Positions 73 through 9,702 of a DNA stretch of 11,528 nucleotides are shown here, in pieces. A program made the position numbers and the translations under genes. Each line of letters begins with the position of its first letter. Positions within the stretch are counted from its first letter, which is position 1. The stretch lies in NCBI GenBank assembly GCA_008080735.1, contig SHMW01000107.1, forward strand, positions 1 through 11,528. The letters run 5' to 3'. The DNA comes from Promethearchaeota archaeon. GTDB taxonomy: Archaea; Asgardarchaeota; Lokiarchaeia; Sigyniarchaeales; SOKP01. Under the pieces are notes generated by a model that did no database searches, was not told the origin of the DNA, and worked only from the letters and a program-made list of their open reading frames with translations.

Positions 73-1416
73 ATGAAGTTTGGCCATATGGAGATTAACA
101 GAGACCAAGATATTATTAAGAAATATAAAGCTCGTTTTAGGATATCAACATCAACTTCCAAGGTAATTGAAGCTTTCTTATTAATGAGTTTTGAGATATT
201 TATTATCGTAATCTTCTCCCTCTATCTACAGGAAACTTATATCAATTCCAATTATTCTAAAAACACATATGAGTATATCTGGGCGGCTATTGAGACTTTT
301 TTAATTATCATTTTTATAATCCAATTACCTATTTATTTTTCTAAAGAAATTTATAATCTGAGAAAGCAAATCATTGGAGAAAAATACGTTCTTTGTCAAG
401 GGAAAAAATATTATTTTGATGGGATGACGCTCAAATTAAGGCCCAAAAGCCCCATAAAGTCGATATTAGAAATACAAAGACTTGAAAATTTTGGTTCAAG
501 CTTGACCTCACTCGATCTTAGCAAAAATGAGATAAACGCCATTCAGTTTCCGGGTAAATTTCCCCATCTTAAAGAGCTAAATTTAAACTATAATAAAATA
601 TCTCAGATTACTAAATTGGATCACGTACCAAAGCTCGAACGATTACAGATTAAATCAAACCGATTACAAGCTCTTGATAATTTATCTAATAATAAAGTTC
701 TTACAGTTATTAATGCTCAAAAAAATTTCATCAAGAAAATTAACCTCAAAACCAATCCAGAGCTTATTGTGCTTAAGCTGAGTGATAACGAATTAGAATC
801 ATTAAAAGATTTCAAAAGCCTCTACAAGCTCATAAACCTAAATGTTTCAAAGAACAACCTAAGGGAAATCGCTTATCTGGAAAAATTGATAAATTTAGTT
901 TTTTTTAATTGCCGAAAAAATCCAATTAAAAGAAATGCAACGATGCCGAAATTCAGTTTAGGGAAACTCTGGGTGAGATACTGTCAATTAAACGGAGATG
1001 CTAAAATCCTTGATAAATTGGTGCTATTATTTGAATACGCGAATAACCAAAAAAGACATAATAAATTGATTAATTATGCATCACGGTATTATAATTCTAT
1101 CTCGCTTCAGACTAAACGTATTAAGAAAAAAAAGAGAATTAGTTATTATTACCATTTCTCATTCTTTTTCCGAGAATTTTTTAGTATTATTAAAGAGAAT
1201 CTTAAAAAAATCAGCTTATATACAATTTGCGTTTTAATCTTATATTTTATCCTGACATCATGGTTACTGGAGATATTCTTCCCTTCAAGAATTGGAAATA
1301 CCCCTTCAAATATTTATAGTGAAAATATGATCCGATCGATTATTCTTCTCATCGTTATTTTTATTTTTTATTGGGTTGAGCTTGATAACACTAATATTGA
1401 TGTGAATTTCAATTGA
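73..1416 (+). CDS. Membrane-anchored leucine-rich repeat protein (about 2 N-terminal TM helices, 7 SDS22-like LRRs, about 2 C-terminal TM helices)
   Basis: 447 aa ORF. Seven 21-22 aa repeats of type LxxLxLxxNxI (SLTSLDLSKNEI, HLKELNLNYNKI, KLERLQIKSNRL, VLTVINAQKNFI, ELIVLKLSDNEL, KLINLNVSKNNL, NLVFFNCRKNPI). Hydrophobic segments at about aa 33-52, 69-89, 380-403 and 420-436. Start could be the ATG at 88. Confidence 0.85.
   Translation: MKFGHMEINRDQDIIKKYKARFRISTSTSKVIEAFLLMSFEIFIIVIFSLYLQETYINSNYSKNTYEYIWAAIETFLIIIFIIQLPIYFSKEIYNLRKQIIGEKYVLCQGKKYYFDGMTLKLRPKSPIKSILEIQRLENFGSSLTSLDLSKNEINAIQFPGKFPHLKELNLNYNKISQITKLDHVPKLERLQIKSNRLQALDNLSNNKVLTVINAQKNFIKKINLKTNPELIVLKLSDNELESLKDFKSLYKLINLNVSKNNLREIAYLEKLINLVFFNCRKNPIKRNATMPKFSLGKLWVRYCQLNGDAKILDKLVLLFEYANNQKRHNKLINYASRYYNSISLQTKRIKKKKRISYYYHFSFFFREFFSIIKENLKKISLYTICVLILYFILTSWLLEIFFPSRIGNTPSNIYSENMIRSIILLIVIFIFYWVELDNTNIDVNFN
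499..930 (+). repeat. Protein-level LRR array (7 units) inside the first CDS
   Basis: Periodic LxxLxLxxNxI/L motif every 21-22 codons, aa 143-286; diverged at the DNA level. Confidence 0.85.
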
Positions 1417-4125: not shown

Positions 4126-4332
4126 ATGAATAGAAAGGTCTCGAAGTTAAAAAAGCTCTTAGAGCATTGGGCAGAACATAACGACTCACATAAAGAATCA
4201 TTTATAAAATGGCGTGAATTTGCTAACGAGGAGGGTCTGGAATCCGTAAGAAAGAAATTGGATAAAGCAATAGAAAAAATTGACGAATGTTCTGCATATT
4301 TAAGAGATGCTCACAGAGAAATTGAAGAATAA
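4126..4332 (+). CDS. Small helical-hairpin protein with HWxxHNxxH motif, putative metal-binding
   Basis: 68 aa, ATG start, amphipathic helices; KLKKLLEHWAEHNDSHKESFIKW places three His at i, i+4, i+8. Confidence 0.75.
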   Translation: MNRKVSKLKKLLEHWAEHNDSHKESFIKWREFANEEGLESVRKKLDKAIEKIDECSAYLRDAHREIEE

Positions 4333-4397: not shown

Positions 4398-5603
4398 TTA
4401 TAAGAACAAATTGATAAGCGGTAAAAGTTGTTTTTTAAAATAATCAAGATTCTCTTCAATTAATTCCGGGTTTTCAGTTAACGCCCACAAATACACTGGA
4501 ATTTGCAAATCAGAATATTCAAAGAGTTTCTCACCATTAATAGTAAATCCATTTAGTGGAAAATCCAGTTTTATGGATTTCTCTCGAATTAATCCTATTG
4601 AACTATGAAAATTGATAAGAACCTGTAGCATTATTGCGGTATTATTTACAAGCATTTCATCAGTATTGGTTTGGTGAAAGCTTCCAAAAATTAACCCATC
4701 CATTGAAATAAGACTCGTAGCTTTTCCGTTTACCGTTCTTGTAAAATCTTCAAGGATATTTTCAATAATTTCAGAGGTCTCCGACACTTTCTTTAAGGCA
4801 ATGCTAAACATTTGCATAATGGTCTCCTTTTGGAACACTGTCGTATCGTAATAATCCACGTTAAATCCCCCATGCTTGTCAATTAATGGATTGAACAGAT
4901 CCTTTACTTCCCTCACATTTTGTTGCCACTCGAGAGTTTTTCTGAAATCTTGGTCGCTTTTATGTAACACAATAAGGATTGGTGCAGATTCATTTAATTC
5001 TTCCAAAGACGCTAACACTTCATCAAAATATTGCGCAGATTCTTCGAATCGTTCGGGATCTTGAATATCAATGACGTACAAGATAAGATCGACTTCAGTG
5101 AAAAATATTTCTGGTTTGTTAAAGTAATACTTCTCTCTATATTGGACTTGACCACCAAGATCCCAACTTACGATAGGGTAACCAAAGAAGTCCAATCGCT
5201 CTCTTTTGACACCTTTTGTGGGCAATAAAGATTTGATGATTGAGAATTTATCCTGAAGAACAGCCAAGATTGACGATTTACCCCCGTTATCTAAACCTAT
5301 CAATAAGAGCTTTTTATGGGCTTTGAGCTGCTCTCCCACGGCCTTTTCTAAAACTTTTGCTATCTTTACCCATTTTGATAAAATGCTGGGTAGAATTCCT
5401 TTAATCTCGGGCAGATTTTCCTCCGGGATATTTGCAAGATCTTGTATTGTTTTAATATTGTTCTCTTTTAGTTTGTCCGCGGATATCTGGTCGATTCCTA
5501 TCAAAGTGTCTGGCTTAAATCTCAAGACTTCTTCTACTTCTGTTATGATAACGTTGCTTTTGAAGAATTCTTTTATATTGGATAATTCTTCCTCCCTTGA
5601 CAT
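4398..5603 (-). CDS. Multidomain small GTPase: N-terminal helix-hairpin-helix domain, Arf/Rag(Gtr1)-like G domain, C-terminal roadblock/longin-like domain
   Basis: G1 GLDNGGKSS (aa 103-111), G2 PTKG (T129), G3 WDLGGQ (147-152), G4 HKSD (214-217), G5 TTVF (254-257). N-terminal LIGIDQISADKLKENNIKTIQDLA..EIKGI is HhH-like. C-terminal IENILEDF...ATSLISMDGLIFGS matches the roadblock alpha-beta-beta start. Confidence 0.9.
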   Translation of the reverse strand: MSREEELSNIKEFFKSNVIITEVEEVLRFKPDTLIGIDQISADKLKENNIKTIQDLANIPEENLPEIKGILPSILSKWVKIAKVLEKAVGEQLKAHKKLLLIGLDNGGKSSILAVLQDKFSIIKSLLPTKGVKRERLDFFGYPIVSWDLGGQVQYREKYYFNKPEIFFTEVDLILYVIDIQDPERFEESAQYFDEVLASLEELNESAPILIVLHKSDQDFRKTLEWQQNVREVKDLFNPLIDKHGGFNVDYYDTTVFQKETIMQMFSIALKKVSETSEIIENILEDFTRTVNGKATSLISMDGLIFGSFHQTNTDEMLVNNTAIMLQVLINFHSSIGLIREKSIKLDFPLNGFTINGEKLFEYSDLQIPVYLWALTENPELIEENLDYFKKQLLPLINLFL

Positions 5604-5632
5604 ATGGACATCAGATTAAGTTGTTATTATTC

Positions 5633-5641
5633 TTATAAAAA
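5633..5641 (-). promoter_or_regulatory. Candidate archaeal TATA box for the GTPase gene
   Basis: TTTTTATAA on the minus strand 30-38 nt upstream of the ATG at 5603; low specificity in AT-rich DNA. Confidence 0.3.
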
Positions 5642-5884
5642 TATTAGTGCTATGCTATTTATTTATATTCTTATTTTAGTATTTATTTTTTTGGTCATAT
5701 TATAAATGGAATTTTTGATATTAACATTTAATAAAATATAAATTGTATTTTTAACCATAAACGAGATTTATGGGGAGAAAATCAAGTAGGTAAAAACTTT
5801 AATAAAAATTAAAAATAAAATACTTTAAGTATTATTTGTTTTTTTTAGTGAAATAAAACTCTAAATGGAAAGGCTAAAAAGGAA

Positions 5885-6076
5885 ATGGTTTCATCTGAAG
5901 AAGCAGAAGCTATTGCAACTGAATATCTGAAAAAAAATGGACATACAGAGTGTAGTTTAGATAAAAACGAGGATAAAATCGTCAAATGGCTTGTTACTTT
6001 TTCTGGAGGAGGAAAAGTATATCGTGTTCAAGTATCAAAATCAGATGGAAGTGTATTAGGATTTACGGTTGATTAA
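5885..6076 (+). CDS. Small stand-alone PepSY-like domain protein
   Basis: 63 aa. VSSEEAEAIA (helix)...WLVTF...YRVQVSKSDGSVL follows the PepSY consensus (IS.EEA..IA...Y.V......V.ID..TG.VL). No signal peptide. Confidence 0.7.
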   Translation: MVSSEEAEAIATEYLKKNGHTECSLDKNEDKIVKWLVTFSGGGKVYRVQVSKSDGSVLGFTVD

Positions 6077-6263
6077 AAATAAAGTTTGAAGGCTTTTTTG
6101 ATATTATACCTTTCTCGAAATTAGAACAAAAAAATTAGATAGCTTCAGATAGGATTTTAAAATTATTTCATAATACTTAACTAAATAAATACAAAATCTA
6201 TTATTTAATTAGGATTCTAAAAATATCTATTCTCAAATAGGAAAAACTTTAAGGTTTAAAGCT

Positions 6264-7466
6264 GTGTCTGATCAAAGATACCCTGAAAATGTAGTAATAT
6301 GTATTGATACCTCTCGTTCGATGTATCGGAGTGATTATTCTCCCTCACGATTAGCGTGCAGTGTTAATGCCTTGAAAAAGTTAGTTTCAGAACGTTTATC
6401 CCTTGATCCTGCCACGTCATTTGCAATTGTCCGATTTTCTACAAATCCAGAAAAACTTCTAAATTTCAGTTCTGTGGAAAGTGAGATTTATAATACACTT
6501 GATTCCCTTAAAATTGAAGGAGAATCTGCTATGGGGGATGCTCTGGCAGTATCTATCAAGATGATCATAGAAGAATTACGAAAAGTCTCTGCCAAGCTTC
6601 CAAGGATCTTACTTATTTCAGACGGAAATTTTACGACGACCGCAGTTGATCCAATAAAGATGTCCAGACTGGCAAATGAATTAAATATCAAAATAGATAC
6701 ATTTCGATTAGGAGAAGCGAGTCATTTAAATATATTAAAGCGTCTCAGTGATGTATCTAACGGGAGATATTATTATATTAATGATACTCAGACTTTAAAG
6801 CAATCAGCTCTTGATTTTGCCCGGTCAAATCTTAAATCTTCTAGTTCAAAAGCCAAGAAAATAATTGAAAATCCCAAATTTCTAAGAAAAATTGCCGCAA
6901 ACCTATTAAGAGTCCAAGATCTTACAAAAGACGATGAACAAAGGATAAAGCATATTCGAGGGATGGCGGATTATAAAAAATGTTCTATTTGTTTTTCGGA
7001 TAGCGATCCTATTACAAAAGGTTCGTTTTATATCACAGGAAGATATTGTCCTAATTGTATGACTCCTTTTCATATCCATTGTCTCGCTGGCTGGGCCGAC
7101 TCACAAGATGAGCCTAAACTGAAGAGATCGGGAACTGTAAGATGTCCACATTGTTTTTACCTTCTAAAAATTCCCTCAGAAGTTAGCCAAGCTCAAAAGT
7201 TAAAGGTTCTTTCTGGTGGTTCGACAAATGTAGATATTGAATCTGGAGATAAAAAAGAAGTTATCGCCACTCAGAAAAAAACTTCAGAGTTGGGAGATGA
7301 AGCAATGTATAATTCTTGTCCGGTATGTAATATGATTTTTGAGGAAGACCAAGATATTGTAAAATGCGGTAACCCTGAATGCGGGACTCTTTATCATAAA
7401 GATTGTTTTGAAAAATTATATAACAAAATTTGTAAGAATTGTGGTTCAAAATTAGTATTGAATTAA
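6264..7466 (+). CDS. VWA-domain protein with two C-terminal C4HC3 RING-like zinc fingers (Ssl1/p44- and Rpn10-like VWA; putative E3 ligase)
   Basis: GTG start. MIDAS motif DTSRS (D15), then DYSPSRL and LLISDG. Finger 1: C240,C243,C262,C265,H270,C273,C294,C297 with W277. Finger 2: C352,C355,C368,C373,H378,C381,C390,C393. Confidence 0.9.
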   Translation: MSDQRYPENVVICIDTSRSMYRSDYSPSRLACSVNALKKLVSERLSLDPATSFAIVRFSTNPEKLLNFSSVESEIYNTLDSLKIEGESAMGDALAVSIKMIIEELRKVSAKLPRILLISDGNFTTTAVDPIKMSRLANELNIKIDTFRLGEASHLNILKRLSDVSNGRYYYINDTQTLKQSALDFARSNLKSSSSKAKKIIENPKFLRKIAANLLRVQDLTKDDEQRIKHIRGMADYKKCSICFSDSDPITKGSFYITGRYCPNCMTPFHIHCLAGWADSQDEPKLKRSGTVRCPHCFYLLKIPSEVSQAQKLKVLSGGSTNVDIESGDKKEVIATQKKTSELGDEAMYNSCPVCNMIFEEDQDIVKCGNPECGTLYHKDCFEKLYNKICKNCGSKLVLN

Positions 7467-7541: not shown

Positions 7542-8417
7542 ATGCCGTTAGAAACTTATCAATATGGTGATTTTGAAATGGGGGTGGGGCATTTTGAACT
7601 TCCTCCAGTACTCATCGGAACAATTTTTTATGATGGGGAGACGATCCTTGAGAGAGACAATCCAGTAAACTTTAGTGAGGGCAAAGCTAAAAAGAGAATA
7701 GATAATCATTTTAAATTATCTTTAAAATATAAAATACCTGGATTGGTCGAATTATCTGCACCAGACCCCGAATCAATGAAAAAATATTTAGATTTTTATT
7801 TAGATAATTATGAACCTCCTTTTGTATTAGGAGGAACCTTTGAAGCAAGAAAGGCGGGAATAATCCATCTTAAAGAACGGGGAATAAAATCCAATCAATA
7901 TATTTACAACACAATTTCGAATCTTAAAAATAAAAAAGAACTTGATTTGTTAAAAAATAATAATATAGAAACCGTAGTTATTCTAATTCTGGGTTCAGAG
8001 AGTATGACCTCCACTCAGCGCTATAACTATCTTGTAAAAAAACGAGAGCCCTACAATGTGAATTTAATTGAAGGGATAAGACAATTAGGGGTTGATAAAA
8101 TCTGGATAGACGGAGGGGTTATTAATTTGGAATCCCTTGCTTATATTCTTGAAACACAACAACTTATAAGTGAATCTTTACAACTTCCTGTAGGAACTGC
8201 TCCCAATTTATTTCTATTTCAATATTCCTCTCCACGATTAAATAAAAAATTTCATACTAAATATCGGAGAGCAAGCATAATGTTTATTGCAACTTGGTAT
8301 TCAAATTTCATTTTTTATGGTGCAATAGAAGATGCCACTGAATGTTTTGCTTCAGCTTATCAAGCGTTAGAGTTTAGAAAAATATTGAAAGAGAAAAACA
8401 TAAAACTCTTAGAGTAG
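7542..8417 (+). CDS. mtrH: Divergent MtrH-family (tetrahydromethanopterin/tetrahydrofolate:corrinoid methyltransferase subunit H-like) protein
   Basis: PPVLIGTIFYDGETI (family PTVL.G.IFY..H.I), F...KAKKRI, ESMKKYLDF, IYNTIS, LPVG and NFIFYGAIEDA (family DF.LYGPIE.A). The 291 aa length fits the family. The symbol denotes family membership, not a proven Mtr complex subunit. Confidence 0.85.
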   Translation: MPLETYQYGDFEMGVGHFELPPVLIGTIFYDGETILERDNPVNFSEGKAKKRIDNHFKLSLKYKIPGLVELSAPDPESMKKYLDFYLDNYEPPFVLGGTFEARKAGIIHLKERGIKSNQYIYNTISNLKNKKELDLLKNNNIETVVILILGSESMTSTQRYNYLVKKREPYNVNLIEGIRQLGVDKIWIDGGVINLESLAYILETQQLISESLQLPVGTAPNLFLFQYSSPRLNKKFHTKYRRASIMFIATWYSNFIFYGAIEDATECFASAYQALEFRKILKEKNIKLLE

Positions 8418-8562: not shown

Positions 8563-9702
8563 ATGATAAATCATCATGACCGGGAAGAAATTGAAATTGA
8601 AGCTTTGCGATTAATTGACAGGGCAGAAGATCTGGTAAATAAAGGAAAAGGAAAGGAAGCTATAGATCTCTATGAAAAAGCAGCCCAAAAATATCTTGAT
8701 TTGGGAAGCTATATGAAGCTTGATGAGCTTTTTATAAAGATCTCTACCATTATCTCCCGATTTAAAAATAATATTCAAGCTATGTATCGACTTAAATCGA
8801 TCATAAGAAAGACTGAAGAGCTGGATCTCTATGAAATCTCCGCAAAACTCTTGATGCAACTTGGTAACTTATCATATAGAATGAAGGATTATGAAACAGC
8901 GGGACAATCATGGAAAAAAGCATCAGATCATTTTTACAATATCGACCCAGATGAATATTATAATCTATCCTCTGAATTATTACTTCGAGCGGGTCAAGCG
9001 TTAGAACGCACAAGTACTAGCAAGGATGAGGGGGAGAGACTAATTTTAAAGGCTTTAATGAAAGTGAACAAATTCGATGAGCTCTATCATACCGAAGAGA
9101 AACGGGCACTCAAACTCCTAAATATGGAGCAATATGAACCGGCAGCGAAAAAATATCAAGATATTTCAAAATATTTTGAAAAAGCTATCGAAAATGTTGA
9201 CGATCTGATACAAGAGACCGATTATGTCGGAATAATGAAGAATGCAAAAAGTCGATTATTGCATTTAGCGGCAGAATATAAGGCTCTTGCAGCATTGAGC
9301 TTGAGGGCATCCAAAAATAGAGAATTCAATCCTCGTATTAAAACTATTGCTCATCATGCCATCAATTTGGCCCTCGATTCCATAACAATTCTTAAAGAAG
9401 TTTTGATCTCAAAAGGTTCAGAAAAAGATAAGGAGGATATTTTGAGAATCACCTTTGATACGCTTTTGATCAGTATTCTTCAAGAGATGCTTGGAGAGAA
9501 AAAAATTGAACCTATTGAATTTTTATTAGATAACTTCAATAAAAAGAATTCGACCCTAGTGAAACGAATAAAGAATTCCCCATTTTACAAACTAACAGAA
9601 AGAATTGAGAAGCTTGGAATTGAAGAAACATTAGACAGAGTGAAAGAGACCAAATTAGGACACCTTGATAAAGTCAAAGAAACACTAATATCTTATTTTT
9701 AG
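8563..9702 (+). CDS. Alpha-helical repeat protein, alpha-SNAP/TPR-like
   Basis: 379 aa, predicted all-helical. Repeated helix pairs KEAIDLYEKAAQKYLDLG, SAKLLMQLGNLSYRMKDYETAGQSWKKASDHF and YEPAAKKYQDISKYF. Purine-rich GGGG upstream of the ATG. Confidence 0.75.
   Translation: MINHHDREEIEIEALRLIDRAEDLVNKGKGKEAIDLYEKAAQKYLDLGSYMKLDELFIKISTIISRFKNNIQAMYRLKSIIRKTEELDLYEISAKLLMQLGNLSYRMKDYETAGQSWKKASDHFYNIDPDEYYNLSSELLLRAGQALERTSTSKDEGERLILKALMKVNKFDELYHTEEKRALKLLNMEQYEPAAKKYQDISKYFEKAIENVDDLIQETDYVGIMKNAKSRLLHLAAEYKALAALSLRASKNREFNPRIKTIAHHAINLALDSITILKEVLISKGSEKDKEDILRITFDTLLISILQEMLGEKKIEPIEFLLDNFNKKNSTLVKRIKNSPFYKLTERIEKLGIEETLDRVKETKLGHLDKVKETLISYF

Follow-up and report, generated by a model that had tools for sequence, protein, structure and literature searches.

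The window analysed here, an 11,528-bp stretch of contig SHMW01000107.1 from a Promethearchaeota archaeon (GenBank assembly GCA_008080735.1), contains a gene for a protein in which a vWA domain is followed by two Cys/His zinc fingers, and the question raised by this locus is whether the product is an archaeal counterpart of the TFIIH subunit p44/Ssl1, as proposed in an earlier note on this DNA, or a protein of another kind. To our knowledge, Asgard archaea are rich in ubiquitin-like systems and small GTPases, and almost no substrate-selecting E3s or GTPase effectors have been identified in them. The window is AT-rich (27-36% G+C) and has a gene content typical of Asgard archaea, with genes for a leucine-rich-repeat protein, a Rag/Arf-like GTPase, an MtrH-like methyltransferase, a TPR protein and an ArsR-type regulator; the leucine-rich-repeat protein (447 aa, LRR_4 and LRR_8) is encoded at the start of the window (73-1416, plus strand). 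The gene under study and the parts of its product are located as follows.

6264-7466, plus strand: vWA-RING-RING gene, an open reading frame of 400 aa with a GTG start, the stop codon being included in the end coordinate
6285-6833, plus strand: vWA domain (aa 8-190), with MIDAS residues D15-x-S17-x-S19, S88 and D120
6861-6962, plus strand: conserved helical linker (aa 200-233), consensus ENPxFLRKIAAxLLRVQDLTKDQEQR
6981-7154, plus strand: RING1 (aa 240-297), a C4HC3 cross-brace with E2-contact residues I242, W277 and P295
7317-7442, plus strand: RING2 (aa 352-393), C4HC3, Pfam Prok-RING_1, preceded by a beta-hairpin

The GTG at position 6264 was accepted as the start codon because homologues aligned from residue 1 onwards (consensus MSxxRxPEN); an alternative database gene call (P0002, 381 aa) begins at M20 and would lose strand beta-1 together with the MIDAS loop. 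Pfam analysis of the 400-aa protein located the vWA domain at aa 9-180 (VWA_2, 64 bits; VWA, 48 bits) and also returned Ssl1 (PF04056; 41.2 bits against a cut-off of 27), Prok-RING_1 (PF14446; aa 350-385, 35.9 bits against a gathering score of 29.1), zf-RING_2 (27.5 bits) and Tfb4 (20.7 bits, below its cut-off). The AlphaFold model of the whole protein (pLDDT 81) has an alpha/beta vWA fold over aa 8-187, linker helices at aa 204-210 and 222-232, and a pair of small zinc modules with a disordered segment (aa 313-329) between them; the C-terminal half modelled alone (pLDDT 85) also adopted a RING fold. Together with the alignments, these results bear out the layout read earlier from the sequence, namely a vWA domain at aa 8-190 followed by two eight-ligand fingers in about 400 aa.

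More than 330 homologue clusters of about 400 aa are known for this vWA-RING family, and an exhaustive search yielded 34 representatives (50% identity level) with E values below 1e-30. Between genera of the window's GTDB family the proteins are 58-68% identical. Both fingers share the pattern C-x2-C...C-x2-C-x4-H-x2-C...C-x2-C, i.e. C4HC3, the ligands being C240, C243, C262, C265, H270, C273, C294 and C297 in finger 1 and C352, C355, C368, C373, H378, C381, C390 and C393 in finger 2. Among 39 members with identities down to 22%, 15 of the 16 zinc ligands were invariant and the remaining one, C381, was Cys in 38; conservation of the ligands across such divergent members is far beyond chance. 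W277 and L300 were also invariant in this set. The MIDAS-type motif that the earlier note had read as retained was indeed found to be kept, with D15, S17, S19, S88 and D120 fully or almost fully conserved in 33 members, nearly all of which are orthologues; it was weaker in distant paralogues, S88 being present in 18 of the 39 members. The 34-residue linker was nearly invariant among orthologues, with L214, R216 and E225 among the invariant or nearly invariant columns. Longer variants of the family (619-686 aa) revealed no informative additional domains.

The two RINGs differ in the residues that bear on E2 binding. A canonical RING grips its E2 by an Ile or Val after the first Cys, a Trp four residues past the sixth ligand and a Pro after the seventh. 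In RING1 this triad was kept throughout the 39 members (Ile/Val in 39, Trp in 39 and Pro in 37), and the residue right after the last Cys was Phe or Tyr, not the basic linchpin residue. RING2 lacked the Trp and the Pro of the triad and had Met/Leu and Lys/Arg at these positions. At the level of Pfam profiles, zf-RING_2 was matched by all 38 C-terminal halves searched, and Prok-RING_1 by 29 of the 38 at E values up to 1.

The full-length family was found in 43/43 other genomes of the window's GTDB order (40/40 in family f1 and 3/3 in family f2) and was not found in any of the 158 Asgard genomes sampled outside that order, 201 genomes having been searched; outside the order, the double-RING profile picked up single RINGs only. 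The Ssl1 profile reached its cut-off solely on this family among the 201 genomes. A wider range, as suggested by the source labels ('Hodarchaeota', 'Thorarchaeota') of some close homologues, was rejected, the labels being unreliable: in the 'Hodarchaeota'-labelled assembly GCA_048887225, a 436,370-bp contig matched a contig of G144, a genome of the window's own GTDB family, in both size and gene order. Genomes of the order have a pair of old paralogues each, about 33-37% identical to each other, and sometimes further ones; the window's genome carries at least five vWA+RING genes, on contigs C107, C96 and C20 and as a tandem pair on C19. The C19 pair (around 42593-42889) comprises vWA + RING1-like genes of 429 and 470 aa, and the C20 gene (32536-33600) encodes a divergent vWA-RING-RING protein of 380 aa. 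Paralogue 2 (in the stretch 4322-13929 of the C96 locus) is situated between the genes for methionyl-tRNA synthetase and an M20 peptidase, near two Roadblock/LC7 genes and a gene for a conserved protein of 1175-1495 aa (1175 aa here) for which there was no Pfam match. The presence of 3-14 RING-profile matches per genome of the order suggests a lineage-specific expansion of RING proteins. Searches of the literature on Asgard or Loki vWA, RING and Ssl1/TFIIH proteins, Asgard GTPases, ESPs and structural clustering found no description of the protein studied here.

How close this protein is to p44 depends on the comparison made. When the single sequence was searched against the PDB, the leading matches were S. 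pombe Rpn10 (E = 1.3e-5) and human p44 (E = 1.4e-5), both limited to the vWA domain; in a family-profile search, a BatA-like Vibrio chain (1.4e-12) preceded Rpn10 (8.6e-12) and p44 (6e-11). Foldseek ranked full-length p44/Ssl1 chains first (E = 1.7e-17 over about 400 columns), and full-length p44 was also at the top of the VIA structural comparison, with bacterial BatB nearly tied in fold score. Outside the protein studied, the Ssl1 profile scored 35 bits on the paralogue, 33.4 bits on a eukaryotic Rpn10 (P0261) and 17-28 bits on BatA-like proteins, and most eukaryotic Rpn10 proteins carry a precomputed Ssl1 match. Since Rpn10 passes this profile at a similar score, the Ssl1 match marks a broad Rpn10/p44-like sequence type and not p44 itself. 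With the family vWA profile, the best RING-less prokaryotic vWA proteins had a median of 82 bits versus 73 bits for 14 Rpn10 proteins. The parallels between the vWA motifs and those of p44 that had been drawn in the earlier note are present in the HMMER alignment to human p44, but the motif DxSxSM...D..PxRL also occurs in many BatA-type proteins, and its status as a derived trait shared with p44 and Rpn10 was rejected on that ground.

A vWA tree of 120 domains (RING family, Rpn10 and prokaryotic vWA; unrooted, p44 and p34 not being included) fell into three groups, namely Rpn10 (a clade with support 100), about 50 RING-less prokaryotic vWA domains (a clade with support 85-94) and the RING family. 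The tree is a three-way split in which no sister pair is resolved. Nesting of Rpn10 inside the RING family, as given by the free tree (support 81), was rejected, the tree with a monophyletic family being 15 log-likelihood units better (p-AU 0.74).

The fingers and the potential partners set the protein apart from p44. In p44, a central four-ligand Cys finger is followed by a C-terminal C4C4 RING (Pfam C1_4, PF07975). Here, finger 1 is an eight-ligand FANCL/listerin-like RING and finger 2 is RING-H2-like. C1_4 was neither matched by the protein nor among the top 25 families of the 38 C-terminal halves, and a C1_4 search of the genome gave no match, the control of that search having matched nowhere either. 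The parallel proposed between GRYCPNC/CPHC and the p44 finger was reproduced by no tool. The best structural matches of RING2 were RNF12 (7.3), ZNRF1 and RNF165 (7.2 each) and RNF38 (7.0), and the p44 RING scored 6.5-6.6 (rmsd 2.6 Å over 62 residues). The p44 RING is a protein-binding module closest in structure to the RINGs of RNF38 and Ark2C (PMC5737387); because it is itself most like these RINGs, its match to RING2 shows only a common RING fold. In the genome (93% complete), Tfb2 (p52) had no match, and Tfb4 (p34) had a single sub-threshold match of 21 bits, which fell on the vWA-RING gene itself. Two XPD-like genes are present, on contigs C111 and C36, and neither adjoins either vWA-RING paralogue.

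Components with which a RING ligase could work are encoded elsewhere in the genome. On contig C21 (19304-22334), genes for a ubiquitin-like protein (Ubl), E1, E2 and a JAB isopeptidase are consecutive and form an operon, and contig C118 carries a second E2 and an E1-like gene. There was no RING gene in the examined stretch of the C21 operon, and the vWA-RING gene is located outside it. The ORF that follows the C21 operon, of 212 aa and still open where the locus ends on its 3' side, had no Pfam match.

The closest and most constant neighbour of the vWA-RING gene is a small GTPase gene, and the surroundings of the two genes are as follows.

4398-5603, minus strand: Rag/Arf-like GTPase, head-to-head neighbour, 401 aa with an N-terminal extension (Gtr1_RagA, 87 bits; Arf, 75 bits)
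5604-6263, no strand: divergent intergenic region, 660 bp here versus about 200-400 bp in relatives
7542-8417, plus strand: MtrH-like methyltransferase, between the vWA-RING and TPR genes (MtrH, 97 bits)
8563-9702, plus strand: SNAP-like TPR protein, 379 aa, with weak TPR and SNAP Pfam matches

PDB matches of the GTPase include RagA, Gtr1, Arl3 and Sar1. The solved chains closest to it are named just 'GTP-binding protein' (8yl2, E = 2e-36; 8zla, E = 2e-26) and are far ahead of these four; a literature search for structures 8YL2 and 8ZLA returned no relevant paper. Within its first 95 residues, aa 45-69 weakly matched the family of the RNA polymerase alpha C-terminal domain. Several GTPase paralogues in this and related genomes (e.g. 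C56:3879-4580) have one to three in-frame stops inside the match and are possibly pseudogenes or affected by sequencing errors. A full-length orthologue of the GTPase was confined to the same 43 genomes as the vWA-RING family, and in about 38 of the 40 genomes with both genes on one contig the two are divergent and about 200-700 bp apart. In family f2, where the proteins are 38-41% identical and the remaining gene order has changed, the GTPase gene still adjoins the vWA-RING gene in two of the three genomes, the distance in the remaining one being 2 kb. The SNAP-like TPR gene, whose product belongs to atlas clusters of SNAP/TPR families that are mostly from Promethearchaeota, accompanies the vWA-RING gene in 10 of the 12 related loci inspected, with family f2 among them (within a few genes). 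The MtrH-like gene is probably unrelated, since it is a neighbour only in the window's GTDB family and is missing from the loci of genus g4 and family f2. Two short ORFs also lie in this region. One of 63 aa (5885-6076, plus strand), inside the enlarged spacer, had a weak PepSY-like match (20 bits, below cut-off), and tblastn found no counterpart of it in 23 related loci; the other, of 68 aa (4126-4332, plus strand), by the GTPase gene, has counterparts of 48-55% identity, annotated as DUF8180, in 10 related loci and had no Pfam match at E 0.01 here.

Taking these data together, we consider it probable, at roughly 55%, that the vWA-RING protein acts as a RING E3 ligase that docks a partner by its vWA domain and is tied to GTPase signalling. 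Its E3 chemistry and its coupling to the GTPase are predictions from sequence and gene order. In the proposed mechanism, RING1 would recruit the charged E2, and the MIDAS face of the vWA domain may hold a substrate or partner by an acidic residue, as do integrin I domains and RGLG1; RING2 and the conserved linker may form another module, for docking or self-association, comparable to the p44 RING in its binding of p34, and the ligase would be controlled by, or act on, a module built round the Rag/Arf-like GTPase. The E3 function is favoured by the retention of the RING1 triad and by the presence of Ubl, E1, two E2s and a JAB isopeptidase in the genome. Against it, a RING may have a structural role only, as in p44, RING1 has no basic linchpin, the gene lies outside the Ubl operon, and the MIDAS is less well kept in divergent paralogues. 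A tie between the ligase and a GTPase module is suggested by the conserved head-to-head GTPase gene and by the linkage of the SNAP-like TPR gene. The pairing with the GTPase persists in the second family, where other synteny is lost, and paralogue 2 lies among Roadblock/LC7 genes. On the other side, small GTPase genes are abundant in Asgard archaea and synteny inside one GTDB family is generally conserved, so that independent support for the GTPase link comes only from the three genomes of the second family. A complex prediction for the GTPase and the vWA-RING protein gave a score of 0.00, a value that carries no weight on binding in either direction.

The vWA domain and the two fingers might instead form a non-catalytic scaffold, for example round the Rag-like GTPase, roadblock and TPR proteins, with no transfer of ubiquitin, and we regard this as possible but unlikely. 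The lack of the Trp and Pro of the E2 surface in RING2 is consistent with such a role, as are the strong conservation of the 34-residue linker, which suggests many contact constraints, and the identity of 58-68% across genera of the window's family, which indicates a tight structural constraint; moreover, the p44 RING, which matches the same RNF38/Ark2C RINGs, binds protein (PMC5737387). However, the triad of RING1, kept across 39 divergent members with the Pro in 37, is hard to explain without an E2, and E2 genes are present in the genome. The family could also represent the true archaeal counterpart or ancestor of p44/Ssl1, its vWA domain stimulating XPD and its fingers organizing a complex for repair or transcription. 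In layout and fold the protein does resemble p44: vWA and C-terminal RING are collinear, full-length p44 leads both Foldseek and VIA, the Ssl1 profile is passed by this family alone among the 201 Asgard genomes, the genome has two XPD-like genes, and ubiquitin-ligase activity has been described for p44/Ssl1 (PMC5737387), which we count in favour of this explanation. The likeness fails in finger type, partners and range, and in these respects the counterpart proposed earlier is not supported. The Ssl1 score is at the level of the Rpn10 cross-match, BatB is a near tie in fold, and the family profile has its best PDB match in a BatA-like chain; C1_4 is missing and finger 1 is a FANCL-like RING with eight ligands; neither p34 nor p52 turned up in the genome, both XPD-like genes sit on contigs different from that of the vWA-RING gene, and the neighbour that stays constant encodes a GTPase; and the family was found in 0/158 Asgard genomes outside one order, and the three-way vWA tree has no resolved sister pair. 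We consider this explanation very improbable.

A role as an Rpn10-like, proteasome-associated factor, with the vWA domain docking a proteasome or AAA-ATPase cap and the RINGs extending or editing ubiquitin-like chains, would agree with S. pombe Rpn10 being the best single-sequence match in the PDB and with the 54-84 bits that Rpn10 proteins reached on the family vWA profile. The best prokaryotic vWA proteins, however, score the same or higher on that profile, Pfam found no UIM in the vWA-RING protein (Rpn10 P0261 does show a weak UIM match), the tree has Rpn10 neither nested in the family nor as its resolved sister, and proteasome genes are absent from the neighbourhood, so that we give this role hardly any credence. 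As for ancestry, it is improbable that p44 inherited its vWA-zinc-RING layout and its reported ligase activity from an Asgard vWA-RING E3 since lost in most other Asgard lines; given its restricted range and how generic the shared features are, the family is unlikely to have taken a direct part in the origin of TFIIH.

The preferred explanation, a RING E3 ligase with a docking vWA domain, can be set beside several known proteins. The order of vWA, zinc and C-terminal RING is common to p44/Ssl1 and the protein studied, whereas the latter has two C4HC3 RINGs, of which the first is FANCL-like with an intact E2 surface, has a complete MIDAS and is limited to one archaeal order. Rpn10 and the vWA domains of BatA/BatB (VWA_2) are about as close to it in sequence and fold as p44 is, and the DxSxSM...D..PxRL start is common to all; Rpn10, however, has UIMs, a degenerate MIDAS and no RINGs, in contrast to the complete MIDAS and two RINGs found here, and BatA and BatB are membrane-anchored and also lack RINGs. 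The RINGs themselves resemble those of FANCL and listerin (C4HC3 type) and of the RING-H2 ligases RNF38, RNF165/Ark2C and RNF12. RING2 is like Prok-RING_1, the cut-off of which it passed, but here it shares a chain with a vWA domain and another RING and is encoded outside the Ubl-E1-E2-JAB operon. A precedent for such a ligase is provided by plant RGLG1, an E3 in which a vWA domain with MIDAS is joined to a RING (PMC7155146). By analogy with plant RGLG1/2, the MIDAS vWA domain would bind and the fused RING would recruit the E2 (PMC7155146). RGLG has a single RING versus two here, and the likeness, for which RGLG was set beside the archaeal protein by its description, may reflect convergent domain fusion.

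The p44-like features merit a proper phylogeny, and the link between ligase and GTPase is open to testing with recombinant proteins. Given its presence in 43/43 genomes of the order, its identity of 58-68% between genera and its head-to-head pairing with a Rag/Arf-like GTPase, the vWA-RING family is a concrete candidate for a link between the ubiquitin-like and GTPase systems of Asgard archaea.
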